Shown here in pieces: positions 2,567 through 45,781 of a stretch of 64,000 bases of DNA (the first letter of the stretch is position 1; every line of letters starts with the position of its first letter). The notes beneath the pieces were generated by a model. That model did no database searches and was not told where the DNA came from. It was given only the letters and a program-made list of their open reading frames with translations. This stretch comes from Candidatus Babelota bacterium. GTDB lineage: Bacteria > Babelota > Babeliae > Babelales > UBA12411. Both the position numbers and the translations under genes were made by a program. The stretch covers positions 106,010 through 170,009 of the forward strand of contig DOJW01000008.1 of NCBI GenBank assembly GCA_003511165.1, in the 5' to 3' direction.

Positions 2567-3908
2567 CAAATCACAGTTCAACTGCACAAATTGCGGCTAT
2601 GTAAGTATAAAATGGGCCGGTTGCTGTCCCGGATGCAATGAATGGAATAGCTTTGTAGAAAAAACAATAGAGCAAAAGCAAGAAGGTTTTAAAAGCAAAA
2701 TACACACCACATCAAAAGCAAATCTATATACCCTAAACACCATTCAAACAGTTAGGCAAGAGCGAATCGTAGCTGGAATAAAAGAGTGGGACCGCGTCCT
2801 CGGTGGCGGAATATTTCCTGGATCATTTTTGATTTTAACCGGCGACCCTGGAATAGGAAAATCTACTCTGCTTTTGCAAATCGCAAACAAAATAGCCGCA
2901 ACGCACAAAGTACTATATTTTTCTTCTGAAGAATCTCTTGAGCAGGTCAAAAACCGCGCAATGCGATTAAAATGTCACAATGAACATTTACTTTTTTCAG
3001 ATCAAGCATCAATGGAAAAAATCCTCACAACAGCGGTTGACGAAAAACCAGATCTTTTGATTCTCGATTCTATCCAAAACTGTTATTTCGAAAAATCAGA
3101 AACAATTCCAGGTACCATCGGACAACTTCGCGAATCTAGCTTTCACCTCATGAAACTTGCAAAAGAAAATAATATCGCTGTACTCGTCACAGGGCACATC
3201 ACAAAAGATGGATATATGGCCGGTCCAAAATTGCTCGAACACATGGTAGATGGATTATTTTATCTGCAAGGTGAAGATCGCTGGCAAACAAGAGTTTTGC
3301 GCGCGATGAAAAATCGTTTCGGCGCTATAAATGAAATTGGTTTTTTTGAAATGCAGGAACATGGACTTTCAGAAATCACAGACATAAATAAATATCTTTT
3401 AAATAATTCTACACCCGCAGCAGGAAGTGCTTTAATCACATGCATCGAAGGGACACGTCCATTGATTTTGGAATTACAATCACTTTGCGTTGCATCCAAA
3501 TTTGGAATTCCACAGCGAGTTGTTAGCGGAGTTGATCCCAAACAGATCGTACTTATTGCGGCAATACTCGAAAAATATTTGAAAATCAGACTTAGTGGTT
3601 ATGACATATTTTTCAAAGTTAGTAGCTCCTTTAAAATCAAGGAAGAAGGAAGCGATCTTGGAATAGCTCTTGCTCTGCTCTCCAGTTATTTCCAAAAACC
3701 ATTGCCGCAAAAATCAATCTCTATCGGCGAAATTAGTTTAACCGGACAAATAAAACCATGTACACAGCTTGAGCACCGCGTAAAAGAAGCAGAAAAATTT
3801 GGAATTGAAACCTTATTTTTGTCCGCACTACAAAAACCAAAAACAAGTTGCAATGTTGTATCGTTCAAACACATTTATGAACTGTTGAATTTGTTTCCAG
3901 AAGAATGA
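2556..3908 (+). CDS. radA: DNA repair protein RadA/Sms
   Basis: N-terminal zinc finger FNCTNCGYVSIKWAGCCPGCNEWNSF, Walker A GDPGIGKSTLLLQ, KNRFG motif, Lon-like C-terminal domain. Overlaps tdk by 11 nt. Confidence 0.93.
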   Translation: MKSSKSQFNCTNCGYVSIKWAGCCPGCNEWNSFVEKTIEQKQEGFKSKIHTTSKANLYTLNTIQTVRQERIVAGIKEWDRVLGGGIFPGSFLILTGDPGIGKSTLLLQIANKIAATHKVLYFSSEESLEQVKNRAMRLKCHNEHLLFSDQASMEKILTTAVDEKPDLLILDSIQNCYFEKSETIPGTIGQLRESSFHLMKLAKENNIAVLVTGHITKDGYMAGPKLLEHMVDGLFYLQGEDRWQTRVLRAMKNRFGAINEIGFFEMQEHGLSEITDINKYLLNNSTPAAGSALITCIEGTRPLILELQSLCVASKFGIPQRVVSGVDPKQIVLIAAILEKYLKIRLSGYDIFFKVSSSFKIKEEGSDLGIALALLSSYFQKPLPQKSISIGEISLTGQIKPCTQLEHRVKEAEKFGIETLFLSALQKPKTSCNVVSFKHIYELLNLFPEE

Positions 3909-3924
3909 AATTCTATCTAAAATT

Positions 3925-3965
3925 TTGAAATAAAAAAGAGGGAATTTTTACATTCCCTCTAAATT
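3925..3965 (-). terminator. rho-independent terminator for the ankyrin gene (stem AGAGGGAAT 3937-3945 / ATTCCCTCT 3952-3960, T-run on minus strand); copy 1 of a 41-bp repeated module
   Basis: Perfect 9-bp stem, 6-nt loop, flanked by aaaaaa (a T-run when read on the minus strand). The same 41 bp recurs at 6883-6924. Confidence 0.7.
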
Positions 3966-3992
3966 GTGAATTCGCTTATGGATGATTTACGA

Positions 3993-5090
3993 TCAAACGT
4001 GAAGTTTATTTAAAACTTTTCTTCTTATAATTTCTTCCCTTAGCAACTGAGCGCAATCTTCATGTCCCTCAGCAACCGCAATATAAAGAGGCATCATGCC
4101 GTCATCATCTTTTACTTCGATATTTGCCCCTACATTAATTAAAGTCTGAGCGCAATCTGCATGCCCACTTCCAACGGCAACATGAAGAGGCGTCATGCCA
4201 TTATTAGCTTTTACTTCGATATTTGCCCCTGCGTTAATTAATGCTTCAGCACCACCTACTTTACCAAAACAAACCGCAATAAGAAGCGGCGTTGCGCCGG
4301 TCTCATTTTTTGCATCAATATTTGCTCCAGCATTTATTAAAACCCTAACACAATCTGCATATCCCACAGCATAATGAAGCGGTGTCGAACCATCTAGATC
4401 TTTTGCTTCAATATTTGCCCCTGCATTAATTAACGACTCAACACAACCTGCCTGACCAGTTGTAACTGCAGCATGAAGAGGCGTTGCGCCTTTATCTGTT
4501 TTTGCTTCAATATTTGCCCCTGCACTAATTAATGCCGAAACCCAATCTGCACGACCTAGACAAACAGCGACATGAAGCAATGTCGCGCCGGTCTCAGTTT
4601 TTGCTTCAATATTTGCCCTCGCTTTAATTAATGCCTTAATACAACCTGTGTGACCTAGAACAGCAGCAAGTTGAAGCGGTGTCATGCCTTTATCTGTTTT
4701 TGCTTCAATATTTGCCCCTGCATTAATTAATGCCTGAGCACAATCTGCATAACCAAGAGAAACAGCGAGATGCAAGGGCGTTAAATCAGCCATAACAAGG
4801 TTCTGATTTGCAAGATGCCCCTGCAACAAAAAGTTAGGATTTACAATCCTAGCTTGTAGTAAAAAATTTAATCTTCTCGTATCATCCAATTTTATTGCTT
4901 TTTCAATCGAAAACTTTACAATTTCTCTAAGCTCGGCCAATCTTTCCTCACTATGAGCTGCTGCTTGCAACTCAAGATCAATGATTCGATCTTCTCTAAC
5001 CCCCAAAGATCCATCTCCCGCATTTAGCGTCATTCCCTCAAAAGCAATTAACGATAATGTAATAAACAACATTTTCTTAATAAAATTCAT
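3993..5090 (-). CDS. secreted ankyrin-repeat protein (about 8-9 ANK repeats), paralog of 8483..9268
   Basis: N-terminal signal MNFIKKMLFITLSLIAFEGMTLNAGDG. Repeated G-x-TPLH-x-A...LINAGANIEAK blocks with 99-nt periodicity. Ends ...NKLHV. Confidence 0.9.
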   Translation of the reverse strand: MNFIKKMLFITLSLIAFEGMTLNAGDGSLGVREDRIIDLELQAAAHSEERLAELREIVKFSIEKAIKLDDTRRLNFLLQARIVNPNFLLQGHLANQNLVMADLTPLHLAVSLGYADCAQALINAGANIEAKTDKGMTPLQLAAVLGHTGCIKALIKARANIEAKTETGATLLHVAVCLGRADWVSALISAGANIEAKTDKGATPLHAAVTTGQAGCVESLINAGANIEAKDLDGSTPLHYAVGYADCVRVLINAGANIDAKNETGATPLLIAVCFGKVGGAEALINAGANIEVKANNGMTPLHVAVGSGHADCAQTLINVGANIEVKDDDGMMPLYIAVAEGHEDCAQLLREEIIRRKVLNKLHV

Positions 5091-5136
5091 AATTTCTCCA
5101 ATATCTAATTATTAAGTTTAAAAATATACAAATTAA

Positions 5137-5165
5137 ACCCTATCAAATCTTGAAAATAATTACAA
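5137..5165 (-). promoter_or_regulatory. candidate sigma70-type promoter of ankyrin gene 1 (TTGTAA-N17-TAGGGT on minus strand)
   Basis: -35 at 5160-5165 and -10 at 5137-5142. The equivalent TTGCAA-N16-TAGGAT is conserved upstream of the paralog at 9322-9349. Confidence 0.3.
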
Positions 5166-5261
5166 ATGGGGTAATGTCGGCAGTGTGAAAACATTGATTT
5201 TCATAGTTTTTTATAAAATTCAAATCAAAAACATACAAAAAACTCAAATTTCGATGAATTA

Positions 5262-5377
5262 AAAAATTTGGAATTGAAACCTTATTTTTGTCCGCACTAC
5301 AAAAACCAAAAACAAGCTGCAATGTCATATCGTTCAAACACATTTATGAATTAATGAATCTATTTCCAGAAGAGTAA
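5262..5377 (+). pseudogene. orphan duplicate of the radA 3' end (last 37 codons plus stop)
   Basis: Manual alignment to 3793-3908 shows about 10 substitutions and no indels. Encodes KFGIETLFLSALQKPKTSCNVISFKHIYELMNLFPEE* versus radA ...NVVSFKHIYELLNLFPEE*. No upstream radA body. Confidence 0.85.
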
Positions 5378-5569
5378 AAAACTTGTAAATTCCAACTATT
5401 TTTAATCAAAAATCAAAACTCTGCATACTTTTCAAACTCGATCTGATAACATTTCTAAATATCGCTTTACGGATCGGAATTTGGATTTCCGATTTGTAAG
5501 CATAAATAAAGTTAAATTTAATTAATAATACAGGCTTTAATATTTGGATATTTGTTTGTACGCAGTGCC

Positions 5570-5595
5570 ATTGTCACCCTCGCATGGGCGACAAT
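5570..5595. repeat. isolated GC-rich hairpin element (ATTGTCACCC-tcgcat-GGGCGACAAT) in AT-rich spacer
   Basis: 10-bp stem with one mismatch. Its composition contrasts sharply with the surroundings. Similar in style to the GC-rich elements at 50462-50510, 51073-51106 and 51318-51351. Confidence 0.5.
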
Positions 5596-5710
5596 ACCGT
5601 ATCAATCATAGATAGAAATTTGTAACATGCTTTATTCAAAAATTAAAGCTAAAAATAATTAAATTTAACTCACACTAAAGTAAGTAAAACTATAAAATTT
5701 AGGAGATTTT

Positions 5711-6877
5711 ATGATATCAAGAGAATTAACTACAGAATTAAAAGCAACCGCAAAACAGTTTCCCGTCGTTGCCGTTTTAGGCCCAAGACAATCGGGTAAA
5801 ACAACGCTTGTAAAAAACACATTCAAAAAATACAACTATGTAACGCTTGAAGATTTAGATAAAAAACAAATGGCGGAAACAGATCCGCGCTCTTTTTTGG
5901 AATCAAATAAAAATGAGCACGGTCTAACCTTGGACGAAGTACAGCTTACCCCAAATCTTTTTTCGTATATCAAAACATATGTTGATTCACACAAAGGAGC
6001 TGGGCAATTTATACTAACCGGATCACAAAATTTTTTATTAAACGAAAAAATCTCGCAATCACTTGCAGGAAGAGTTGCAATTTTAACACTCTTACCTCTG
6101 TCATACACTGAACTAGAAAAAGCAAAGCTTCTAAGCAATAAAATTGATAAAACTCTTTATTTCGGGTTTTATCCAAGAATTTGGAACGAAAAAATCCCAC
6201 CACAAAAATGGTACAAAAACTATATTCAAACATACATCGAACGCGATGTAAGAAATTTAAGAAATGTTGAAAATTTAAGTTTGTTCCAACAATTCATAAA
6301 ACTATGCGCGGGTAGAATTGGACAAGTTTTAAACCTTGCATCACTAGGAAATGATTGTGGAATTACAGCAAATACAGCACGCTCATGGATTTCTCTTTTA
6401 GAAAGTAGTTATATAATCCACCTTTTACGTCCACATTATAAAAACTTCAGTAAAAGATTAATCAAAGCTCCAAAGCTTTATTTCTACGATGCAGGACTTG
6501 CTTGTTCTCTACTTGAAATAGAAAATGAAAAACAATTAGCCACGCATTACTTGCGCGGAAATCTATTCGAATCTTTTGTAATTTCAGAATTAATCAAAAA
6601 ACAGTATAACCAGGATAAAAGACCTAACGTCTACTTTTGGCGCGACAGCCTAGGACATGAAGTTGATTGCATAATTGAAAAAGGACAAGAACTAATTCCG
6701 CTTGAAATCAAAATCGGCAAAACAATAAATCCTAGTTTCTTTGACGGTTTACACTATTGGAATGAATTAGCAGGCGAAAAATCTCAAAATGGAGTTTTAA
6801 TTTATGGCGGTGATGAAAAAGTTAAACATCAGGGAATTAAAATTTTAGGATGGAAATTTTTGAAAAATATTTCTTGA
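5711..6877 (+). CDS. AAA-type ATPase with C-terminal DUF4143-like region (AAA_14/DUF4143 family ATP-binding protein)
   Basis: Walker A GPRQSGKTTL near the N-terminus, LDEVQ Walker B-like motif, and the length and layout typical of this family. AGGAG RBS. Confidence 0.75.
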   Translation: MISRELTTELKATAKQFPVVAVLGPRQSGKTTLVKNTFKKYNYVTLEDLDKKQMAETDPRSFLESNKNEHGLTLDEVQLTPNLFSYIKTYVDSHKGAGQFILTGSQNFLLNEKISQSLAGRVAILTLLPLSYTELEKAKLLSNKIDKTLYFGFYPRIWNEKIPPQKWYKNYIQTYIERDVRNLRNVENLSLFQQFIKLCAGRIGQVLNLASLGNDCGITANTARSWISLLESSYIIHLLRPHYKNFSKRLIKAPKLYFYDAGLACSLLEIENEKQLATHYLRGNLFESFVISELIKKQYNQDKRPNVYFWRDSLGHEVDCIIEKGQELIPLEIKIGKTINPSFFDGLHYWNELAGEKSQNGVLIYGGDEKVKHQGIKILGWKFLKNIS

Positions 6878-6882
6878 AATCT

Positions 6883-6924
6883 TTGAAATAAAAAAGAGGG
6901 AATTTTTACATTCCCTCTAAATTT
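6883..6924 (-). terminator. rho-independent terminator (stem 6895-6903 / 6910-6918); copy 2 of the 41-bp module seen at 3925-3965
   Basis: ttgaaataaaaaagagggaatttttacattccctctaaatt is identical to the copy after radA. It sits between convergent genes 5711..6877 (+) and 6956..8254 (-). Confidence 0.7.
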
Positions 6925-6955
6925 TTATGTAGTTATGAAATATCAACCAAAATTT

Positions 6956-8254
6956 TTATTCTCTTCCTGGAATATAAGTTGACCCTGGAAGATGAACTCC
7001 TTGACATGCCGCCAAAGTCCAATCAAATTGCGCATCTTCTTGATACTCTTGAATTTTATGTTCTTTATTCACAGATTGTTCTTGTTTTTTATCGTCTTTG
7101 TTCTCTGATTTTTTTTGATCAGGATTTTGTGATTTATTCACCATTTTCTCTGTGTTTTTAGGCTTTGAACCTACATGATTATCCTTACATATTTTTTCAT
7201 GTACAAAAACTGAATAATTCTCTTTTTTAGGTACAGATAACACATTAACTTGTGTAATATTAGAAGTCTTTTTTTGTGACGCAATACAATCTCGCAATTT
7301 TATTATCTCTTGCAATTCTCTTTCTTTTTTATATTCGTTAGACGATCTAATCAATTGAATGCATTTTTGAAGCTGCTGCAGATACCGCTCTGCTTTCAAA
7401 GAAGTCTGTTGGTCTGCTAATTGATTTGCAATAGCTTTTATATCTTCAAGGTTTATTCGTAAAGTAGATCTATAATTTCTATCTCCTCCCAAAAATTGTA
7501 ATGCGTTAAGCAAAGGAAAATCATCATAATTAAATTGAGAATCTTTGAGATAAAAATTCAAATCCATTACAACTTTTTTTGAAAAATCTTGCTCAACTTG
7601 CTTTAATGAATTCCTGTTTTGTTCAATCAATTTTTTGGTTTCTTCGATCTGCATGTCTCTTCTTTTAGCAGCTAATGCTTTTTGTAAATCATCTTCGTTT
7701 ATCGCGTTTAATTTAGATAGCAATAAATTGACTTTCCCTTTTAAAGTTGTAAATTCGTTCAATAATTCTGCTTTACGCTCAGAACTAAAACTTAACTCTG
7801 TTAACTCTTTTTGCAAATCATCAAAAACAGATAAATCTAAAGAATCTTTTAAAGACTTAAAGTCTTTAATTTTTGCCAAAGCGGTAACAATTTCATCAAA
7901 TGGCTTTAAATTCCTATCCTTACCAATAGCAGCTGCATAAATAGCTTCATAAACAGAAATTTTACTATCAAGGCTCCATTGAAACGCGGATCTTTTTCGT
8001 GCTTTAAGATGTTGACATGCTTGAATTTTATGTATCAACCAAGCCGAAATAATAATAACTTGCACCCCTCCAACAATAGCCATTTCTCTTGGATAATTTT
8101 TTACGATTTGCCTTAGCCACGCAGAAGGAATGATAGCTAGCGTTTTTGCACGTTCACTTATATTTTGTAAGCAATCGACACTTTTTATATTAGAATTTAC
8201 AAAGAATGCACTTATCCCTAAAACTAAAACAAGTGACTTAATTGCCTTATTCAT
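6956..8254 (-). CDS. hypothetical signal-peptide/TM coiled-coil protein with Lys/Glu/Gln-rich C-terminus
   Basis: 432-aa ORF. N-terminal MNKAIKSLVLVLGISAFFVNS, second hydrophobic segment MAIVGGVQVIIISAWLI, long heptad-like charged regions. No family recognised. Confidence 0.65.
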   Translation of the reverse strand: MNKAIKSLVLVLGISAFFVNSNIKSVDCLQNISERAKTLAIIPSAWLRQIVKNYPREMAIVGGVQVIIISAWLIHKIQACQHLKARKRSAFQWSLDSKISVYEAIYAAAIGKDRNLKPFDEIVTALAKIKDFKSLKDSLDLSVFDDLQKELTELSFSSERKAELLNEFTTLKGKVNLLLSKLNAINEDDLQKALAAKRRDMQIEETKKLIEQNRNSLKQVEQDFSKKVVMDLNFYLKDSQFNYDDFPLLNALQFLGGDRNYRSTLRINLEDIKAIANQLADQQTSLKAERYLQQLQKCIQLIRSSNEYKKERELQEIIKLRDCIASQKKTSNITQVNVLSVPKKENYSVFVHEKICKDNHVGSKPKNTEKMVNKSQNPDQKKSENKDDKKQEQSVNKEHKIQEYQEDAQFDWTLAACQGVHLPGSTYIPGRE

Positions 8255-8400
8255 AAAACCCCACTTAAATTAAATTTAACAACTAAAATGATTCAATTAA
8301 AATAATGCTGCCCTAAGGGCTTTATTAAGTCAAAATAAATTTTATGATATTTATAGAAAATGCGAATTTTATAATGTAAATTTATTTGTAATTTCAAATT

Positions 8401-8457
8401 GAAAACAAAACAAGGGTTATATTTTAAAGGCGTAAAAAATATCTTTAAATATAACCC
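8401..8457 (-). terminator. rho-independent terminator of ankyrin gene 2
   Basis: Stem GGGTTATATTT(T)AAAG 8414-8429 / CTTTAAATATAACCC 8443-8457, followed on the minus strand by ttgttttgttttc. Confidence 0.65.
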
Positions 8458-8482
8458 GTTTATTTATTTGAATAATTTACAA

Positions 8483-18346: not shown

Positions 18347-19438
18347 TTATATCAAAAATTCCTTATTTGTTTTTGCTAAAATCCAATCCAATATTATTTT
18401 CAATGCCTCTGGCGCTATTGTTTCTTCAATTGTTCCATACTCTGCTAAAGAACCCGTTTTACATGTTTGAAATGTATGATTCAAATTATGCAATTCAACT
18501 GTTTTATAATCCAAATTGCCTGCAGCTTTTAGTGAGTCAGAAGTTATTTCTAGCGATGGATTAGATGAAACAATCCAATCTCGATCACCATTAAGAGCAA
18601 GAACGGGGACAACAATCTTTTTAAGCATTTCAGCGGTATTACAATTAAGAAAATAACGATACCAAGATGAATTAAATGCCTCAACCATTGAATCTATTTT
18701 TGATTTGGTTATTGCAAAAGGAATATTATCCGATTCTTTTTTTAAATTCTCAGGCAATTGCGCGCAATAATCATTCATTAGTTTTTGCAGTTTAACTTTG
18801 GCAACTTCTATATTTAATTCTTGTTTTACAATGGTCAATATCTGCATTCGCAATTTATGATCTTGAGCAAGAAGTTCTTCACTTGCACCATCAGCCTTTA
18901 ACTGCTTTGCAGTTTGCATAACTAAATCATCAACATCTGTTTGGACAACTCCTGCCATCGATACTAAAAAAGCAACATCTTTGGATTCTGCAGCTAACAT
19001 ACAGGCAATCATCCCGCCTTCACTATGTCCAATTAACCCAATTTTATTTGGATCAATCTCTTTTCGCGTTTTTAGATATTTAATTCCGGCAATAACATCA
19101 TCCGCAAAATCTCTGCTCGTTGCCACCGCATAATCTCCCGTAGATTTTCCAACTCCACGCTTATCAAAACGTAAAACGGCAATACCATTACGCGTCAGAT
19201 AATCTGCAAGCACTAGAAAACGCTTGTGCCCCATCATATTATTATCACGGTCATGCGGACCTAAACCAGCAACCAATATCACAGCGGGGAAATGTCCGGT
19301 TTGATTCGGCATAGTTAAACTACCTGAAAGGTTTACTTTTGCCTTCTCATTTTGATAACTCACTTCTTCTATTGAATAAGGGAAAGGAGGTTTTGGTTCT
19401 TGATAAAAATTTAGCTGCCTTGTGTCTTTATTACTCAT
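18347..19438 (-). CDS. alpha/beta-fold hydrolase (serine nucleophile)
   Basis: Nucleophile elbow IGLIGHSEGG. Upstream VLRFDKRGVGKS is typical of the fold. C-terminal D and H candidates (NGDRDW, LNHTF). Confidence 0.8.
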   Translation of the reverse strand: MSNKDTRQLNFYQEPKPPFPYSIEEVSYQNEKAKVNLSGSLTMPNQTGHFPAVILVAGLGPHDRDNNMMGHKRFLVLADYLTRNGIAVLRFDKRGVGKSTGDYAVATSRDFADDVIAGIKYLKTRKEIDPNKIGLIGHSEGGMIACMLAAESKDVAFLVSMAGVVQTDVDDLVMQTAKQLKADGASEELLAQDHKLRMQILTIVKQELNIEVAKVKLQKLMNDYCAQLPENLKKESDNIPFAITKSKIDSMVEAFNSSWYRYFLNCNTAEMLKKIVVPVLALNGDRDWIVSSNPSLEITSDSLKAAGNLDYKTVELHNLNHTFQTCKTGSLAEYGTIEETIAPEALKIILDWILAKTNKEFLI

Positions 19439-19788
19439 TTTTCTTCAGTTCTTTCGATATTTTTTGTTAAACAATTATTAATCATGTACATGCACATAAA
19501 AATGCATAAACAGATCAACTTTTATGCAGTCAGCATAAAATATTAAAATTATATGGAAAATATAAACACGAATACCAAAAACAGATGAAAAACATCACGT
19601 TTTTCGGCTAGTTTAGATAAGAACTAATAAAACTTTCATAACGGCCTCGCTAAATTTTCTATTTTAATTTGAGGTCCAAATAAACTATAACTAAGTGATA
19701 ATGCTAACCAAGAATTTCACTTTTAGCAAAATAATTGCTCCTTTAATTTGCAACATATTAAGCAGGTACTTTAGCAAATCAAAAACGC

Positions 19789-20316
19789 TTATTCATTTGC
19801 TCGTGCCCTTACTCTTTCAATGACTCCTTGCATTCTTCTTTCTTCGAAATATTTTATTAAAATGGGGTATTTATCAACTAAAGAAAGAAATAACTGTGTC
19901 CCTTTTTTATTATTTAATTTAAGCAATGTATAAACAGCAGAAACTAAACTATCATCATCATTTTTTTTATAAGCTTCTTCGGCAAGTTTAATAAGATAGT
20001 CAGCAGCACTTTCATCACCTATGTCTATCAAACACTCTGCAGCTTCGATTTTACCGCTTAAATAATCACTCTTATCTATAAATTCATGTAATTTTTCTTT
20101 TATAGGTGGCCATTTTAAAGAGATTAAAACCTCTGCCAATATTAATTTATTTTCTTCATCCTTTTCTTCTTCGTTAAAAAGATTAATTAGGTACTCAAAC
20201 TCTATAGGATCTTTTTCTGCAGCCTTTTTCATTTCATCCATATAAAATTCAATTACATTATAATCTTGTACACCATCTCTAAAAGCATTATAAAAACTTC
20301 GAACGTTTGTTTTCAT
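19789..20316 (-). CDS. HEAT/PBS-like helical repeat protein; candidate immunity protein 2 (paralog of 20320..20838)
   Basis: 175 aa, 3 nt after the upstream paralog. GKIEAAECLIDIGDESAADYLIKLAEEAYKKNDDDSLVSAVYTLLKL resembles the HEAT_PBS pattern A-x-x-L-x-x-iGd-x-x-A-x-x-Li. Confidence 0.5.
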   Translation of the reverse strand: MKTNVRSFYNAFRDGVQDYNVIEFYMDEMKKAAEKDPIEFEYLINLFNEEEKDEENKLILAEVLISLKWPPIKEKLHEFIDKSDYLSGKIEAAECLIDIGDESAADYLIKLAEEAYKKNDDDSLVSAVYTLLKLNNKKGTQLFLSLVDKYPILIKYFEERRMQGVIERVRARANE

Positions 20317-20319
20317 AAA

Positions 20320-20838
20320 TTATTCATTTGCTAATTTTTTAACTTCCTTAAAAAACTCTTTTCCTTCGCAATATTTTTTTAATTCTTCATATTTATTTAC
20401 TAATTTAAGAAAAGCTTGTGTTCCTTTTTTATTTTCTAGCCTAAGCAGTGTTATTGCAGCAGAAATTAGATAATGATTATCCTTTTTTTCATATGCTTCT
20501 TGTGTTGTATTGATAATATAATCAATTGCTCTTTCATCTCGCATGTCTACCAGATATTCTATAGCTTCAATTTTATTTCCTAAATCGCAACTTTTTTCTA
20601 TTAACTCATGTAAGATATTTTTTATAGGCATCCATTTCAATAAAACTAAAACTTCTGCTAATGTTAATTTATTACCCTCATATTTTTCTTCGCTTAAAAG
20701 ATTAATTAAATCTTCGAACTCTACAGGATCACTTTCTGCAGCATTTTTCATTCTATTTATGCAATCTTCATAAATATCATAGTCTTGACATTCATATCTT
20801 ATTGATTCATAGATATCTCTTAATTTGCTTTTTTTCAT
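20320..20838 (-). CDS. HEAT/PBS-like helical repeat protein; candidate cognate immunity protein 1
   Basis: 172 aa, starting 9 nt after the toxin stop. NKIEAIEYLVDMRDERAIDYIINTTQEAYEKKDNHYLISAAITLLRL. Collinear with its paralog over the full length. Confidence 0.5.
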   Translation of the reverse strand: MKKSKLRDIYESIRYECQDYDIYEDCINRMKNAAESDPVEFEDLINLLSEEKYEGNKLTLAEVLVLLKWMPIKNILHELIEKSCDLGNKIEAIEYLVDMRDERAIDYIINTTQEAYEKKDNHYLISAAITLLRLENKKGTQAFLKLVNKYEELKKYCEGKEFFKEVKKLANE

Positions 20839-20847
20839 AAATTTCCT

Positions 20848-23800
20848 TTATTGATTCCATGTAGGGTATACGGTTAATATTTTCCCTTCTGAACTAACTC
20901 GAGCTTCAACTCTAATGCCTCTAGAAGTAATACCTACAAATTTATTACCCTCAATATTATTTGCTTTATTTGAAACTATTTCTTTCGCAGCTTCGAAAAT
21001 ATCTTTAGAAGTATAATTTGTAGGCCACAGTGTTTTTATACCTTTGATTTCTTCACCTGATTGTGTAATAACTTTTGCTTTGTTATAAAATTTATCTTTT
21101 GCAAATACATGTTTTGGAGAAATAACTCGAGTAACGCCATTTTCTAATTTTTCAACTTTAAATAAATCATCCGCGAAATTAAATTTCTTTTTAAAATTTT
21201 CAAAAGCCTCCAATGTATGCATCCCAACTGTTAATCCAGAACGAATTTGCTGTGTCTCATTAGCAGCTAAAAACTCCCCGCAAAATACATGTTCTATCGA
21301 TTTTCCGTTCCATTCTTCATGTCGTAGAAGCAAATCTAACCATTGATTTGTATGAACACCGACATCATGAATAGCGGGATGATCGGTTAAACATTTTTTG
21401 GCATAAGCAACTTTTTCTGCTCCAAACTTTTTTTCTAAATCGTAGACATGATTTAAATCGCAAACAAGATTATTAATCGGAGCCACCACAGCTTGTAAAT
21501 CTGGATTTTTAATAGTTCGAGCAATTCTCTCTTCGTTTTTCAAAATTTGTACGAACTTTGATATTTGACCAAAAGCTACGCTATGTGCTGTCGGAATTTT
21601 ACTACCAATGACAAAACTTCCCGCTACTCGCCCAACTGTTTTTTCTGCTCCCAACACTTCATCACTATCCAAATAATCTAGCTTGTCATTTATCGATTTG
21701 AGCACTTTATCAAAAGATAAATCTGAATGATCTCTTATATGTTTTAAAAATTTTATAGAACCATCAAAGAAGTCATCACAAGCACCGTCGGGATTTTCTG
21801 CAACATATTTACCTAACTCCCATGCGTTTAACGCAGCCATAGTTGAATATTTTTTCAATCCTGATCCGGCAGCACAAGCAAGATTTTTAATCGCAGTATA
21901 ACTTTCATCAATTGTTTCAAGCGGTCTATCAATGGTATCTACAGCATAAGCTAAAGCATCAAAAGCGGATAAACCTACACCTTTTGCTAAAGATAAACCT
22001 GTATGAAGATAAACATCTTCGAATTTCACATAAACTTTTGCTATTTCTTTGCTATACCGAAGCATCGAATGCGCAAAATTATTAGCAGCGGCACATTTTA
22101 TCATCTCATTTTTAAGCGCAAAGTTTTTAGCATGTCGCAATGCAGAATAAATGGCATATGAAGGACCATGTAGTTGCTTAACATCTACAAAAGAATCTAA
22201 CATTTGAGAAGTTTGATTGATTATGTCAACTGTTTCTCCCAAAAACGATCTCTGTACTTTATTACCCGTAAAAGATCTGTACTCATTCGGGTCAAAATTT
22301 AATCGCGGCAAATATTCGCATGCTTGGTTGTTTAGACTATAATATTCAGTTCTAATTTCTTTATTTGGACCTTCTTGCAAATAGCTATAAATTGCGTCTG
22401 ATCGTTTTTTCAAAAAAGCATTTTCATCACTATGCACAGTTGCTTCTTCGCCTTCTGTAGGCAAACTTTCAAGCCCAACACGCGCAACTTCTTTATCATA
22501 CTCTGAAGAGTTAGAAGAGTTTGAAACATTATTAAAGAACTGCTTTTTGTATCGAATAGCTTGCAACTCGTTGCTACCAGGATCACCAAACAAAGAATCA
22601 GTTACAAAATTAGACGCCTTTGTAAGAAGCGATTGATTTTGCTTTTCTAATTTTTCTTTATTTTCTTCTTCCTCTTTTTGCAATAACATTTCATTCAAAG
22701 CATTTTGCTGTTCTTGTTCCCACTCATTGTGCTTTGACAAATATTCTTGCTCATTTGCTGATTTTAAAGATTCCTCTTCTTTTTGCTGCTTCAAAATTTG
22801 ACGATTCATCTCTTCAATATCAAAAGCCGATTGTAGAAAAATATCTGAAAGCGTAGCGTTCAACTTTTTCATCGATGCATCATCAGCAAGATAATAATTT
22901 GAAGTTTCAAGCTCGGACGCGATAACATTCGTAAGCAACTGATTTAAATTTCCATCACTACTACCAAGCGGATTAAAAATTGCTGAAATATTATTTTTTA
23001 TTATTGATAAATTATCTTCACTTAAATTTTCTATGCGGTATAAACCTTTAATCGAATTCAAAACTTGAGAATTTTTTTGTAAATCTAATACCAAATTGCT
23101 ATAAGCCAAAGCTGCATCTTTACAAGCATCACAATAACTTGATACAAGAAAAATTTTGTTCTTTTGATCTTGGTCAGATTTATAGGAGAAATTTTCTTTG
23201 ATAAGGGTTATAGAAGGTCTTCGATAATTCAAAAGGTTCGGATCCCACTTTAAATCTCCTGAACCCTGAGTAATTAATAACGAATATTTTTCGCTAGCAA
23301 CGATCATCTTTTCGCAAAAATCACATAAAGCAAACGATTCTTTAATGTTATTATTTGCCGATTTATCTGCAGCCAAATTTGCAGTCCTATAAATCATTTC
23401 TGTAAGCGATTTTATACGATCATCCGCATTAAAATATTTTCTCAAAACACAGGTTCTATTTAAAACCGCTTCAATCTCTTGATTTACCAGTTGCTGTACT
23501 TTGCATCCATCACACTTTTTGAATTTCTCACAATTTATCCCAAAAGATTTCAAATCATTTTCTGCATCTTGTGACAAATTATATGTTTTACACTCTTTGG
23601 CGGTAAAATCTGAAAAATCATCATTTAAGGCGCTTATACGAATTTTGTATTTTTCAAAATTATTCAAATCATTATTTTTTAATGCACTGTTCATTCTACC
23701 AATAGATTCCACTGATGCTTCTATCAATTGCTGTTGCCGCTGTGAAAGTATTAATTCTTTTTGTTGTTTTTCTACAACATTCAAAAGAATCTTATATGTT

Positions 23801-24513
23801 TCTTGCCCTCCTTTAAGTGAATTATTTTTATCTTTTCTTTGCTTTTCAGATTCAATAAGTTGCTTCTGCCACAATTTACTTTCTTGATTTCCCTTGATAA
23901 TCGCACTCGAATAATTCTGATAAAACTCAGATCTTTCGGATTTTATTCGACTAGCTTCGGTTTGAACATATCTTACCCATTCCTTATCTGCGAGACCCGC
24001 ATCTCTTCCGGAATGTTTATACTTACAACGATGATCATATTTTTCGAAATATTTGTCTTTATCCAAAATATATTCTTCATAGCCTAGGGCGTCACAAATC
24101 ATCCCTTTATAATTTGGATTTGAATAATAATCGAAATTACCAAAAAGATTTTGATTATTTTGTGGAGATCTATTTAACTGATCGGAAAATTTTGTTTTTA
24201 TTTCATTTTGATCAAAACTTTGAATCTCTGGATTTTTTACCGGATGTTCTTTTGGTGTGGTATTGTACAATGCATTTAAATTCTGGGTTCTACGAGAAGC
24301 TTCGTATTCACATCGAGCTTGGTCCATGAAAGCCTGAGTATCATTTTGCTGTGATTTAGGCTGTGAATAATTCCCCATAGAAAATTGTGTGTTATACTCA
24401 GCTATAGGCGCAGCTCCATAGCTATCCAAATAAGATGGAACTAATTTAATAAAAGTTGTTGCAATTAAAAGTAAAAATATAAAAAGTAGTTTAGAAATTT
24501 TTTTGGATATCAT
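20848..24513 (-). CDS. large Sec-signal protein with C-terminal EndoU/XendoU-like endoribonuclease module (candidate polymorphic toxin)
   Basis: 1221 aa. N-terminal KLLFIFLLLIATTFIKLV, a central Glu/Lys/Gln coiled coil, and in the last ~180 aa IEHVFCGE(x18)GMH ... IKGIKTLWPTNYTSKDI ... GIRVEARVSSEGKILTVYPTW. GAGG RBS. Confidence 0.6.
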   Translation of the reverse strand: MISKKISKLLFIFLLLIATTFIKLVPSYLDSYGAAPIAEYNTQFSMGNYSQPKSQQNDTQAFMDQARCEYEASRRTQNLNALYNTTPKEHPVKNPEIQSFDQNEIKTKFSDQLNRSPQNNQNLFGNFDYYSNPNYKGMICDALGYEEYILDKDKYFEKYDHRCKYKHSGRDAGLADKEWVRYVQTEASRIKSERSEFYQNYSSAIIKGNQESKLWQKQLIESEKQRKDKNNSLKGGQETYKILLNVVEKQQKELILSQRQQQLIEASVESIGRMNSALKNNDLNNFEKYKIRISALNDDFSDFTAKECKTYNLSQDAENDLKSFGINCEKFKKCDGCKVQQLVNQEIEAVLNRTCVLRKYFNADDRIKSLTEMIYRTANLAADKSANNNIKESFALCDFCEKMIVASEKYSLLITQGSGDLKWDPNLLNYRRPSITLIKENFSYKSDQDQKNKIFLVSSYCDACKDAALAYSNLVLDLQKNSQVLNSIKGLYRIENLSEDNLSIIKNNISAIFNPLGSSDGNLNQLLTNVIASELETSNYYLADDASMKKLNATLSDIFLQSAFDIEEMNRQILKQQKEEESLKSANEQEYLSKHNEWEQEQQNALNEMLLQKEEEENKEKLEKQNQSLLTKASNFVTDSLFGDPGSNELQAIRYKKQFFNNVSNSSNSSEYDKEVARVGLESLPTEGEEATVHSDENAFLKKRSDAIYSYLQEGPNKEIRTEYYSLNNQACEYLPRLNFDPNEYRSFTGNKVQRSFLGETVDIINQTSQMLDSFVDVKQLHGPSYAIYSALRHAKNFALKNEMIKCAAANNFAHSMLRYSKEIAKVYVKFEDVYLHTGLSLAKGVGLSAFDALAYAVDTIDRPLETIDESYTAIKNLACAAGSGLKKYSTMAALNAWELGKYVAENPDGACDDFFDGSIKFLKHIRDHSDLSFDKVLKSINDKLDYLDSDEVLGAEKTVGRVAGSFVIGSKIPTAHSVAFGQISKFVQILKNEERIARTIKNPDLQAVVAPINNLVCDLNHVYDLEKKFGAEKVAYAKKCLTDHPAIHDVGVHTNQWLDLLLRHEEWNGKSIEHVFCGEFLAANETQQIRSGLTVGMHTLEAFENFKKKFNFADDLFKVEKLENGVTRVISPKHVFAKDKFYNKAKVITQSGEEIKGIKTLWPTNYTSKDIFEAAKEIVSNKANNIEGNKFVGITSRGIRVEARVSSEGKILTVYPTWNQ

Positions 24514-42160: not shown

Positions 42161-45100
42161 ATGAAAGTTTCAAAAATTATAGTTTTAGCTTTGTTTATCG
42201 GAAGCATTTTGGGAAATATACGAATTAAATGCGGGGAAGAAGAAGAAGCAATATCCCGTGCAATTGCAAATATACAAAAAAACTACGACGACGAAATATT
42301 AAAACCATATGAACACAATTTAGAAGTTAATCTTAAAGCGATTAAAGAAATAGAAGGCAATATTAAACAAACTAAAAGCAATCTTGAAAAATCACAATCA
42401 CAAGATTCAATTGAATATCATAAATCACAACTGGTTGATCATGAAAAACGTCTTGAAAACGCAATAAAAATATACCTCGATACCATAGAAATTTTTTTAA
42501 AAAACGCAGAAAGTAGAAAAAATCTAATACTAGACGAAATAGCATATCATATCCAAAGAATAGCTAACCTTACACTACGCAAAGAATTAGACCTAAAACT
42601 AAAATTAGAAACAGATCAAATCACAGAAACAATAAGTAAAAAAAGAGCTCAACTTGAGGAAGAGATTAGACTCATACAAGAAGAAGCTAAACGCCTTAAA
42701 GAAGAAATTAAAATTGCAATCGAAAAAAAACAAAAAGAAGATGAACTCGCAAAAGAAAAAGCTAAAATTGAAGCTGAAGCTAAACAAAAAGAAGATGAAA
42801 CTACCTTGGGAAAACAAAAAAATATATTTAGAGATAATATACGCCTTCATTATTTTAAAATCGCTTGTGAAATACTTTCGGAAATAGAAAGTAAAAACCA
42901 AACTAATGATTTTTTTAAATCTATTTGGGACCCTTCTTTTGACATCAACTCAAAAGATAAAGATGAAAACACAATATTAATTGTTGCTGCGATGCATGGC
43001 CTTGATAAATTCGTTACATTTTTACTCGAAAATGGTGCTGATGCAAATGTAAAAGGAGAATATGAGAGAACGGTCTTCTTCTACCTTAACACTAAAAATA
43101 TTGCAATCATTTTGATTGATTGGTTGAAAAAAAATGGTTTAAATCCTGCTGAATATTTGAATGACCGAGACCTCGATGGAAATACGCCTTTAATGGTTGC
43201 AGCAATGCATAGTGCAACTGAGTCACTAAAAATTTTACTAGATAATGGCGCAAATATTAACGCAAGGAATAACGCTGGCCGCTCTTTTCTTCATTTTATT
43301 TATGCAAATCCAAAAGGTATTAGTTATTGGATCGAAATAGCCAAGACTACTGAGCTAACACCAACATTACCAACAATTGATGAATACTATCGAACCCCTC
43401 TATACTGCGCTTTAGAAGAAGGAGAAGATGTAACACAATTCACAAAAGAATTAGAAAAACAAAATGCTCCACTGTTTGGCACCAATAGCGAAGGTCAACC
43501 GGTCTTCCCATATGCTACAAATAATCCTGCTATTTTGGTTAAAGCATTAACCGAAGCTGTGCAAAAACAAAGTAGCATGGACGAGGAATCTCAGCAGCGT
43601 ATTTTGGGTGAAATTCTACTACCTTCAATTTTATTTCAACACCAAGTCTGTCTACCCCTTATAATAAAAGATCCAAAATTACTGCAAAATACTAAAAAAC
43701 TATTTAAAGAATTTGCACCTAAAAGAGTTGATGATTTTTTTGAAAAAACTATTAACGATGCTAAAAAGAATATTCCTCAAGTTCCTTTGCATCATTTAGC
43801 TATATTTATAGATAAAGATGATGAATGGGATGTCACTAATAAAGCTATGAGCGTAAAACTTACATCAATGCTTAAACAAGCAGGCACACCATGTCTCGTT
43901 ATAGGTGGCCATGTACTAAAACATGCGGCCACAAACCTGCATAAAGAAAAATTCGATTTTGAAAAAAACTTTTATTTTTTTACAATCAATGATGATAAAT
44001 TTTTTCCTGTTCTTGTTATTCCTAAAAATTATGCCGCAAGAAATGTAAGCGATAAATCTCTAATAAATTTGTCAAATTTATCTTGGCTAAGATCTTTAGG
44101 TTTTAACCCTAAAAATTTGGTTCATAAAAAATTTGCCAATATCGACTTCAGTAAAGAGCAAATAATTCCAACTAAAGAATTTGGGGAAAAAACTATTAAT
44201 CTGGTTAAAAATGTTTTGACTAATGTTAAAGAACGTGGACGAATTGTATATGTAAGCGGACATGGATATAGTTATATTCGACAAAAAATAGATACTATTT
44301 ATGAGCGTGCGGTAAACTTACCTTTAAACGCATTTTTTGATTTAATTAGAGAGTTAGAAGAAAAAGGCACATTGTTCACACACGTTTTAACATGTTACAT
44401 GGGGGGTGACAATTTATCAGCTTTGGAAAAAGTTATGATAAATGATTTTTACAATACAACGCTTGCAACTATGCTGGATACCCATCAAAAAACAAAAAGC
44501 ACTACTTCCGAAACTCATAATAAAATGTTTTTATCTGTTGCATCAACAGCAGATGTCTCAACAAGCGGAGACGTTGATACAAATTTATTCTTCCCAGCTG
44601 TCGATACGTTTTTCAACTTATTACGATCTGACGCAGTAAAAGATATGATGCCAAATCTATTTACTTGGCTTACAAGAATGTTTAGAACCGTTGGCGTTCG
44701 TAGAGATATTGTGAATTATCCACAAATCAGAATACCTGGTAATCAAACATCATTTTATCTTGCAGATATCCATGGAGACTTACAAATAATCAATAGAATG
44801 AACACCATGCAAGATCGCTTCACAATCGCACAAAAAGGGGATAAAAAAGTAGTTAAAATCAATAAACCAAAAGATATTGTCGTTACAAACAAAAATGTTT
44901 TGGTAACGTACATCGACCATGTCGAAAACAAAGTAATAATCGAAGATAAGGTACCTGTAATACTTGCCATGGGAACTAATGAATATTTCAGAACATTCAG
45001 TGAAATATTTGTAGACATACCTGAAATGGATTTTTTTAATTTTGCTTACAACAGTTTCTACCCTGCAGATTTTGGCGAAGAAATGGGTCATCGCGAAACT

Positions 45101-45781
45101 TATTTAATGAAAAAACTCACTTTTGCAAATGAAGATATTTTTGAAGATATTGATGTTCCACAAGAAATTGCTTCACAAAAACCACAGACTTTATACAACG
45201 TTTATCTCAAAAGAGGATTAGAAGAAAAAGCTGCTGTTATTTTTTCACTCGGACAAAATCCTACTGACGATGTTTTTGAGATAAATGAAGATAAAGTTGT
45301 AAGAAAACTCGAAGGCGAAGAGAAAGAACTTTATTTAGCTAGAGTTTCGGCAATGCAGGCAGAAGTTGGTCACTACTTTAGTCCACTAGAAGAAAAGCTT
45401 CTAAAAAATAGCGCTCTATTCTTACAAGAAAATAAACAAGATTTGGCAAAAGTATTTAAAACCGCATTAGTAAAAAGTGTTGTTTTGAGTGGAAGAGATT
45501 GCGATAAATTATTGTTATCATATTTAAAACTTCTTGATACAACTACAGATGAAGAAATATTAACTTCGCTCAAAGAACTTCTTCCTTTTTTGATGCAAAA
45601 TTACAAAGAAATTCCATCATGGACACTGCTTGAAAAAATGAAATTTGTAATTTTAAGTTTCAAAGAACTAAAAAAGGAAACAGTCGAAACTTTCGAAAAA
45701 ATAATAGATAAACTTTTTGAATTCGATGAGAAAAATAAAAAAGCATTAAAAGATCTACTAAAGAAAATTACAGTTAAATAA
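42161..45781 (+). CDS. giant secreted protein A: signal peptide, Glu/Lys coiled coil, ankyrin repeats, clan CD-like His/Cys domain, helical C-terminus
   Basis: 1206 aa. MKVSKIIVLALFIGSILG; ANK blocks DENTILIVAAMHGLDKFVTFLLENGADANV and DGNTPLMVAAMHSATESLKILLDNGANINA; RIVYVSGHGYSY (His701, nt 44261-44263) and FTHVLTCYMGG (Cys745, nt 44393-44395). Confidence 0.85.
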   Translation: MKVSKIIVLALFIGSILGNIRIKCGEEEEAISRAIANIQKNYDDEILKPYEHNLEVNLKAIKEIEGNIKQTKSNLEKSQSQDSIEYHKSQLVDHEKRLENAIKIYLDTIEIFLKNAESRKNLILDEIAYHIQRIANLTLRKELDLKLKLETDQITETISKKRAQLEEEIRLIQEEAKRLKEEIKIAIEKKQKEDELAKEKAKIEAEAKQKEDETTLGKQKNIFRDNIRLHYFKIACEILSEIESKNQTNDFFKSIWDPSFDINSKDKDENTILIVAAMHGLDKFVTFLLENGADANVKGEYERTVFFYLNTKNIAIILIDWLKKNGLNPAEYLNDRDLDGNTPLMVAAMHSATESLKILLDNGANINARNNAGRSFLHFIYANPKGISYWIEIAKTTELTPTLPTIDEYYRTPLYCALEEGEDVTQFTKELEKQNAPLFGTNSEGQPVFPYATNNPAILVKALTEAVQKQSSMDEESQQRILGEILLPSILFQHQVCLPLIIKDPKLLQNTKKLFKEFAPKRVDDFFEKTINDAKKNIPQVPLHHLAIFIDKDDEWDVTNKAMSVKLTSMLKQAGTPCLVIGGHVLKHAATNLHKEKFDFEKNFYFFTINDDKFFPVLVIPKNYAARNVSDKSLINLSNLSWLRSLGFNPKNLVHKKFANIDFSKEQIIPTKEFGEKTINLVKNVLTNVKERGRIVYVSGHGYSYIRQKIDTIYERAVNLPLNAFFDLIRELEEKGTLFTHVLTCYMGGDNLSALEKVMINDFYNTTLATMLDTHQKTKSTTSETHNKMFLSVASTADVSTSGDVDTNLFFPAVDTFFNLLRSDAVKDMMPNLFTWLTRMFRTVGVRRDIVNYPQIRIPGNQTSFYLADIHGDLQIINRMNTMQDRFTIAQKGDKKVVKINKPKDIVVTNKNVLVTYIDHVENKVIIEDKVPVILAMGTNEYFRTFSEIFVDIPEMDFFNFAYNSFYPADFGEEMGHRETYLMKKLTFANEDIFEDIDVPQEIASQKPQTLYNVYLKRGLEEKAAVIFSLGQNPTDDVFEINEDKVVRKLEGEEKELYLARVSAMQAEVGHYFSPLEEKLLKNSALFLQENKQDLAKVFKTALVKSVVLSGRDCDKLLLSYLKLLDTTTDEEILTSLKELLPFLMQNYKEIPSWTLLEKMKFVILSFKELKKETVETFEKIIDKLFEFDEKNKKALKDLLKKITVK

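Follow-up and report, generated by a model that had tools for sequence, protein, structure and literature searches.

An EndoU toxin locus in a Candidatus Dependentiae genome with two adjoining HEAT-like proteins as predicted immunity proteins

Polymorphic toxins of the Tox-EndoU type, such as CdiA-CT of E. coli STEC_O31 with its partner CdiI (PDB 5HKQ) and the MafB EndoU toxins, end in a ribonuclease (RNase) tip. The catalogued immunity partners of Tox-EndoU are Imm-SUKH, Imm-SuFu and Imm28 (Zhang et al. 2012, PMC3482391), and CdiI-STECO31, the partner in the one solved EndoU toxin–immunity complex, is a mixed alpha/beta protein (PMC9086364). HEAT-repeat immunity is also a recognised class, which the same catalogue lists only with Tox-REase-7 and Ntox34 (PMC3482391). 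Here we describe a locus in a 64,000-nucleotide (nt) stretch of DNA (the window; contig DOJW01000008.1, G+C 31.5%) from a metagenome-assembled genome of Candidatus Dependentiae (candidate division TM6), in which a gene for a 1221-residue toxin with a C-terminal EndoU tip is followed by two genes for small HEAT-like proteins, imm1 and imm2. All three products are deposited as hypothetical proteins of Candidatus Dependentiae. The explanation that best covers the whole of the comparative evidence, and that we consider very probable, is a polymorphic toxin system encoded in one operon, in which the EndoU tip would be neutralised by the small HEAT-like immunity proteins.

The features of the locus are listed below, each with the evidence on which it is based; loci retrieved from other contigs carry L numbers, members of the small-protein family P numbers, and dS is the number of synonymous substitutions per site.

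20848..24513, minus strand: toxin gene, 1221 residues, with an N-terminal signal/anchor, a lineage-specific scaffold and a C-terminal EndoU RNase tip (open reading frame (ORF), Pfam, hydropathy)
23266..23685, minus strand: scaffold module copy 1, toxin residues ~277–416, ~135 residues (match to the L005 toxin, 30% identity, E 3e-15)
22036..22434, minus strand: scaffold module copy 2, toxin residues ~694–826 (match to the same L005 segment, E 5e-7)
21300..21335, minus strand: cassette boundary (shift in DNA and protein identity and in dS against L004)
20851..21303, minus strand: EndoU RNase tip, residues 1071–1221, isoelectric point (pI) 8.9 (Pfam, alignment of six tips)
20320..20838, minus strand: imm1, 172 residues, pI 5.1, without signal peptide, HEAT-like; presumed cognate immunity protein (ORF, paralogy, profile, structural model)
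19789..20316, minus strand: imm2, 175 residues, pI 4.8, sister paralog of imm1 (51–53% identical); putative second immunity protein (ORF, tree, dN/dS)
19439..19788, no strand: non-coding spacer ahead of the next, unrelated gene, an alpha/beta hydrolase (ORF, tblastn, hidden Markov model (HMM), Rfam)

The toxin stop codon is followed after 9 nt (aggaaattt) by the imm1 ATG, and the imm1 stop codon after 3 nt (ttt) by the imm2 ATG, spacings which indicate that the three genes are packed as one operon. An initial annotation of this DNA, made from the sequence alone, had placed ORFs of 172 and 175 residues at these distances past the preceding stops on the toxin strand, and both coordinates and sequence agree with it. 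It had also read the two ORFs as collinear paralogs, and the proteins are indeed collinear and 51% identical (174 residues aligned, E 2e-49), far beyond chance. Scans for promoters and terminators gave no excess of sites over shuffled sequence, and PADLOC gave no meaningful match.

Compared with Tox-EndoU polymorphic toxins, the window has the same elements: a large, predicted exported protein with a C-terminal EndoU domain; conserved His, His, Lys and Thr in the tip; a candidate immunity gene immediately downstream; replacement at the tip boundary; and, in relatives, orphan cassettes with truncated tips. The genomic features by which polymorphic toxins have been recognised, namely a C-terminal toxin domain, variable tips, an adjoining immunity gene and orphan cassettes (the last in relatives), are seen (PMC3482391). 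The window differs from the described Tox-EndoU systems in that its immunity candidate is an all-alpha HEAT-like solenoid, that its toxin has no FilH, RHS, MafB-N, LXG or WXG module, and that its host belongs to the Dependentiae (TM6). The small proteins gave no match to a Pfam or NCBIfam Imm, SUKH or SUFU family at E ≤ 1. The initial annotation had remarked that helical-repeat immunity against an EndoU domain was unfamiliar, and the main catalogue (PMC3482391) agrees; no paper in the literature that we searched pairs EndoU with HEAT-repeat immunity, and none links Dependentiae with polymorphic toxins.

Three further systems resemble the small proteins in part. Like Imm-HEAT (Zhang et al. 2012), each is an all-alpha HEAT-type protein encoded beside a toxin tip and predicted to confer immunity; unlike Imm-HEAT as catalogued, the partner is EndoU and not Tox-REase-7 or Ntox34. 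With the PBS-lyase HEAT-like proteins (CpcE/CpcF, alphaRep) they share the motif A-A-x-x-L-x-x-x-x-D-E-R-[AG] and the solenoid fold, but they have no lyase context, and each stands alone as a short unit of five hairpins that is tied to a toxin tip. Barnase and barstar are likewise an exported BECR-fold RNase and an acidic intracellular protein inhibitor encoded beside it, an arrangement that is predicted here. They differ in having no large polymorphic scaffold, no orphan modules and no recombination at a tip boundary, and barstar is a small alpha/beta protein.

Comparative genomics gives good support to the assignment of imm1 and imm2 as immunity proteins for the EndoU tip: the gene neighbours on unrelated contigs, the joint replacement of tip and small gene, and the orphan cassettes with truncated tips all point to it. 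Two HMMs, one of the three closest tips and one of the aligned family, were run over every retrieved locus in six-frame translation. Upstream sequence can be read for 16 family copies, and 13 of these stand immediately behind an EndoU tip or part of one; of the other three, two stand behind a further family copy (imm2 of the window and the second L004 gene), and the last is found in an orphan array. The family gene is directly behind a full EndoU toxin in the window, in L003 (a toxin of 739 residues in a different neighbourhood, adjoining mutS), in L004, in L006 (845 residues) and in L013 (an EndoU ORF of 294 residues), and directly behind a truncated tip in L005 (7758–7985), L006 (3300–3485), L007/L008 and L009/L010. 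At contig edges, the end of a tip precedes the family gene in L002 (STFYPTWHQ-stop), L011 (..RIITTFPT), L012 (..KILTAFPSWYQ-stop) and L015 (..GAKTLWPAHYTPDDIAEAAKEILSNP...ATAFPL-stop). The window tip ends in ..KILTVYPTWNQ-stop, and from this resemblance the fragments are clearly homologous. Most loci have a single family gene per tip (L003, L013, L009, L007, L012). The initial annotation had named a broad occurrence of these proteins without adjacent toxins as evidence against its proposal, and the distribution behind tips is the reverse of that pattern.

One family member joins the two partners in a single ORF: P0019 (250 residues, on a 977-nt contig) consists of the N-terminal half of the family and a C-terminal stretch of ~80 residues that corresponds to the end of an EndoU tip (..AYPTWNNEQS), a chimera that probably arose by deletion within an orphan array. 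The family-bearing contigs L011, L013 and L009 range in G+C from 27% to 45% and encode eukaryote-like proteins nearby (F-box-type leucine-rich repeat (LRR), RING finger, ankyrin and Sel1). These neighbours suggest that all hosts of the family are protist-associated bacteria.

The closest relative of the window toxin is a toxin fragment in L004, and the comparison of the two reveals a sharp breakpoint. Protein identity is 80–98% per 60-residue block up to residue ~1075 and 25–46% thereafter; at the DNA level, identity is 85–98% from 22171 down to ~21332 and 48–68% through the tip, imm1 and the start of imm2. The breakpoint coincides with the start of the EndoU domain. The pre-tip region is ~90% identical between the two loci, while the tips are 43% identical and imm1 and the corresponding L004 gene only 34–36%. 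Against L004, dS is 0.30 ahead of the tip and rises to 1.5 within it; the value for the immunity gene is 1.17. These higher values imply a much older common ancestor for the tip and immunity gene than for the rest of the toxin gene, and the jump indicates that the cassette was exchanged by recombination, beyond what rapid change of the proteins alone would give. The comparison indicates that the tip and the immunity gene or genes form an exchangeable cassette that has been swapped at the EndoU boundary.

A second kind of variation is seen in L005, a 245-kb contig with a toxin of 1191 residues that shares the window scaffold module, ends in an unrelated tip and is followed by different small genes. 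The ~135-residue module occurs twice in each of the two toxins (E 3e-15 and 5e-7); BLAST of the window toxin against itself missed the repeat, so its two copies are very diverged. A scaffold held in common with a toxin that has a different tip counts for the polymorphic toxin reading. As a separate observation on scaffolds, that of the L009 toxin gives a weak, sub-threshold match to the SctB2 translocon family.

Orphan cassettes are found in several of the related loci. In L005, L006, L007/L008 and L009/L010, a tip that lacks its catalytic N-terminal half stands ahead of an intact family gene. In L006 (2300–4100), the last 54 tip codons and the family gene are tandemly duplicated (85% DNA identity over 674 nt), and the dN/dS between the two family copies is 0.12. 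The L005 array (3551–11942) begins with the toxin, a 103-residue gene, an EndoU fragment with its family gene and another 103-residue gene, and continues through further modules: a 415-residue orphan toxin module with a third tip, paralogous genes of 169 and 177 residues, and the family member P0007, which has no tip fragment. The window itself contains no orphan cassette, and neither the gap from imm1 to imm2 nor 19439–19788 holds a remnant of a tip.

The toxin domain occupies the extreme C-terminus (residues 1071–1218 of 1221) of a predicted exported multidomain protein. It matches PF14436 EndoU_bacteria with E 5.7e-10 and 40.1 bits (cutoff 25.3) over model positions 3–128 of 129, and the tips of relatives score 36.1, 30.5 and 27.8 bits. 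Nine residues are invariant over six aligned tips (H1075, G1079, G1097, H1099, K1160, W1163, P1164, Y1167 and T1168 in window numbering), and position 1161 is Thr in five of the six and Ser in the other. The Tox-EndoU signature is H, H, [SNT] (PMC3482391), and the triad of the CdiA-CT STECO31 toxin is His-His-Lys (PMC9086364). With residues equated to these catalytic positions by motif order and without structural superposition, the window tip fits both the signature and the triad, and the domain looks catalytically competent. An apparently active tip, with invariant H, H, K and T and a Pfam score above threshold, counts for the immunity reading. Charge and location fit that reading as well, since the tip is basic (pI 8.9) and the small proteins are acidic (pI 5.1 for imm1 and 4.8 for imm2) and have no signal peptide. 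At the other end of the toxin, residues 9–27 form a hydrophobic signal/anchor segment (hydropathy peak 2.26), and this Sec-type N-terminus is the only secretion feature that we found. A plain Sec signal is an accepted trafficking category for polymorphic toxins (Zhang et al. 2012, PMC3482391). Besides EndoU_bacteria, the toxin has no Pfam, NCBIfam or PADLOC domain.

The small proteins belong to a family that has no Pfam or NCBIfam model of its own. An exhaustive HMMER search of 1.84 billion cluster representatives with a profile of the two paralogs returned 22 clusters at E ≤ 1e-3, of which some 18 are small proteins (63–250 residues, mostly 160–210) aligned over most or all of their length; the remainder are long or repetitive proteins that match in several short stretches. 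When word-indexed homology searches were made with imm1, with the whole toxin or with the family profile, hardly anything beyond the query genome came back. No relatives turned up in the GTDB genome collection either, which was scanned twice with different alignments of the family, and the small proteins as single sequences had no match in the PDB.

The initial annotation had seen a resemblance to PBS-lyase HEAT repeats, which holds at the level of the profile and of the structural model but not against the Pfam thresholds for single sequences. HEAT_2 scored 17.3 and 17.4 bits (cutoff 27.7; E 0.006) and HEAT_PBS 17.2 bits (cutoff 20.9; E 0.007), all below the gathering scores, and HEAT_2 reached E ≤ 0.01 in only 4 of 16 family members (best E 1.7e-4). 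By Pfam's curated criterion, the small proteins are not members of HEAT_2 or HEAT_PBS. With the family profile, by comparison, alphaRep chains, which derive from PBS-HEAT repeats, are matched at E 3.9e-13 to 1e-7; the match runs along the segment kiwAAenLikleDERgieyL, the same one that the initial annotation had singled out. An AlphaFold model based on a 16-sequence alignment has a mean predicted local distance difference test (pLDDT) score of 95.3 and consists of eleven helices arranged as hairpins. The best Foldseek matches of this model are alphaRep, a designed HEAT protein and the CpcE/CpcF lyase, with template modelling (TM) scores of 0.5–0.6 and none at E ≤ 0.001; the top 50 are all helical-repeat proteins. 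One repeat is canonical (residues ~85–117) and the remaining repeats are degenerate, and both small proteins keep the nearly invariant residues of the family. At the level of profile and modelled fold, then, the small proteins are PBS-lyase-type HEAT-like solenoids. HEAT-like solenoids are protein-binding scaffolds.

The presence of two family genes behind one tip calls for separate treatment. Imm1 and imm2 are sisters in 194 of 200 bootstraps of a neighbour-joining tree of 17 family members. Their divergence (dN 0.33, dS 0.93, dN/dS 0.35) points to purifying selection on imm2, and both copies appear intact. In L004 (1852–1932), a second family gene (MMKTKVRECYEDYKEYCDEYSAEICEK...) starts 0 nt past the stop of the first, at the contig end, and by manual count its N-terminus is most like the preceding gene and P0013. 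The layout of a toxin followed by two immunity genes (toxin-immA-immB) is common to the two closest loci, window and L004, despite their differing cassettes. Imm1 and imm2 lie at much the same distance from the immunity proteins that go with related tips, so co-divergence does not single out the cognate one.

The initial annotation had taken the second protein to be either an orphan or specific for a variant toxin, and had suggested that the spacer downstream could hold decayed orphan tips. The latter suggestion we reject. Spacer 19439–19788 has no ORF longer than 42 residues and no Rfam match, and a search of 19400–19830 for remnants of EndoU tips or of the family was empty, with nothing by tblastn at E ≤ 10 and negative bit scores only in unfiltered HMM scans. 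With no tip remnant beside imm2, with the two genes as sister paralogs and with a second family gene in L004 too, the second copy is better explained by tandem duplication, or by a conserved cassette of two genes, than by acquisition of an orphan cassette; specificity for a variant toxin stays a candidate. The two-copy layout is compatible alike with repeated local duplication, with concerted evolution of an ancestral pair and with a need for two proteins. As to what imm2 may do, we rank extra immunity to variant tips above a cooperative pair, and a cooperative pair above simple dosage.

Elsewhere in the window, two tandem paralogs of ~1200 residues (42161–45781 and 46189–49743, both on the plus strand) each have a signal peptide together with ankyrin repeats. 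Identity is 66% over the whole length and nearly complete in the C-terminal ~400 residues. These proteins look like host-directed effectors, and their uneven identity suggests gene conversion. A further pair of tandem paralogs (13853–14821 and 14865–15839, both on the minus strand) has signal peptides and DUF2608 (HAD-hydrolase-like) domains.

Dependentiae are host-dependent bacteria, obligate and genome-reduced parasites of protists. Such a lifestyle would suit a different reading of the locus, after the manner of barnase and barstar, in which the toxin is a Sec-exported EndoU effector or scavenging RNase directed against the protist host or extracellular RNA and the HEAT-like proteins are no more than intracellular inhibitors that keep the producer safe until export. 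Any RNase folded in the cytoplasm would need an inhibitor whatever its target, Pfam and NCBIfam show no known interbacterial delivery domain in the toxin, and eukaryote-like ankyrin, Sel1, RING and F-box-LRR proteins are encoded in the window and the related loci. We nevertheless find this reading quite improbable. A host-directed effector gives no reason for keeping intact inhibitor genes behind truncated, inactive tips. Together with the orphan-cassette arrays and with the cassette replacement at the domain boundary, which has left tip and inhibitor far more diverged than the rest of the gene, these retained inhibitors are hallmarks of arms races of strain against strain. Moreover, the toxins of intracellular bacteria are mostly directed at the host and come without immunity genes, Odyssella being an exception (PMC3482391); the window locus would be a further exception beside it.

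Two other readings concern the small proteins themselves. Imm1 and imm2 could be the two subunits of one immunity factor, or one an inhibitor and the other a chaperone or export adaptor for the tip. In keeping with this, both window copies are intact and under apparent purifying selection, their 3-nt spacing suggests translational coupling, and L004 also has an abutting second family gene although its tip is only 43% and its first family gene only 35% identical to those of the window. On the other side stand the loci with one family gene per tip, which are the majority, and the second copy of L006, which brings its own tip fragment and hence arose as a duplicated cassette. The copies within each locus are also mutual closest relatives (by the tree in the window, by the N-terminus in L004), which fits repeated local duplication, and on balance we regard a two-protein requirement as unlikely. 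It is scarcely credible that the small proteins are adaptors or chaperones for secretion of the toxin, or HEAT-repeat host effectors unrelated to it. Helical-repeat proteins are generic binding scaffolds, to be sure, and Dependentiae genomes are rich in repeat-protein effectors such as the ankyrin proteins of this window; the family, however, has no signal peptide, it is absent beside the L005 toxin with the same scaffold module and a different tip, and it tracks the C-terminal tip, even as fragments that have neither scaffold nor signal peptide, and not the N-terminal delivery region. The adaptor or chaperone role was rejected on this last ground.

Several observations weigh against the one-operon toxin–immunity system that we favour. 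The family is tiny (22 clusters), which leaves about a dozen loci as the basis of every statistic. In L005, P0007 stands behind unrelated small genes in the toxin-cassette array, with no remnant of EndoU ahead of it. In L009 (2933–6582; L010 alike), a truncated tip of 115 residues, 43% identical to the main tip, comes between the full toxin of 906 residues and the family gene P0011, and the active-looking tip has no immunity gene of its own adjoining. An AlphaFold2 model of the window tip (pLDDT 77.5) retrieved no EndoU structure from the PDB by Foldseek, and sequence and profile searches of the PDB with the tip gave chance-level matches only. Lastly, Pfam and NCBIfam found no trafficking domain in the toxin (RHS, filamentous haemagglutinin, LXG, WXG, PAAR, MafB-N and others), so delivery into a target cell is conjecture.

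Given the linkage to tips (13 of 16 copies) and the cassette swap, the immunity function put forward in the initial annotation gains support from its genomic setting, and we propose the following model, in which neutralisation itself is our inference and the second copy may be assigned to either of the roles discussed above. The 1221-residue toxin would be exported through its N-terminal signal/anchor segment, and the lineage-specific scaffold would present or deliver the C-terminal EndoU-type RNase tip. In the cytoplasm, the acidic solenoids would bind the basic tip one-to-one and block its active site or its RNA-binding surface, and the producer would so be safe both from the toxin that it makes itself and from identical toxin that sibling cells deliver. 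Tip and immunity gene or genes would travel as one cassette, exchanged by recombination at the boundary of the EndoU domain. The cognate inhibitor is most likely imm1. Imm2 may be an old tandem duplicate that most likely widens protection to related tip variants in the population; that it acts together with imm1 seems less likely.

A more far-reaching version of this model, which we hold to be doubtful though worth stating, is that the locus serves warfare between Dependentiae strains, possibly within a shared host cell, by means of a lineage-specific, Sec-exported scaffold that lacks any known delivery module, and of a conserved two-gene HEAT-like immunity unit, the latter either cooperative or with two specificities. 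If true, this would mean both a new delivery route and a new immunity architecture for BECR RNases.

On the reading that we favour, the locus would add an unnamed immunity family, linked to an EndoU tip, to the polymorphic-toxin repertoire, and the HEAT-like solenoid would be a fold class not previously catalogued as an inhibitor of EndoU RNases. The small solenoid may also be of use as a natural, compact, predicted RNase binder with a high-confidence modelled fold, related to the alphaRep scaffolds of protein engineering. The large N-terminal scaffold, with no known trafficking domain, is a candidate for a new delivery mechanism. For the Dependentiae, the locus would mean that a candidate phylum known only from host-dependent parasites or symbionts keeps the full machinery of an interbacterial arms race, with exchangeable tips, matching immunity genes and orphan cassettes, which in turn would imply competition between co-infecting strains.

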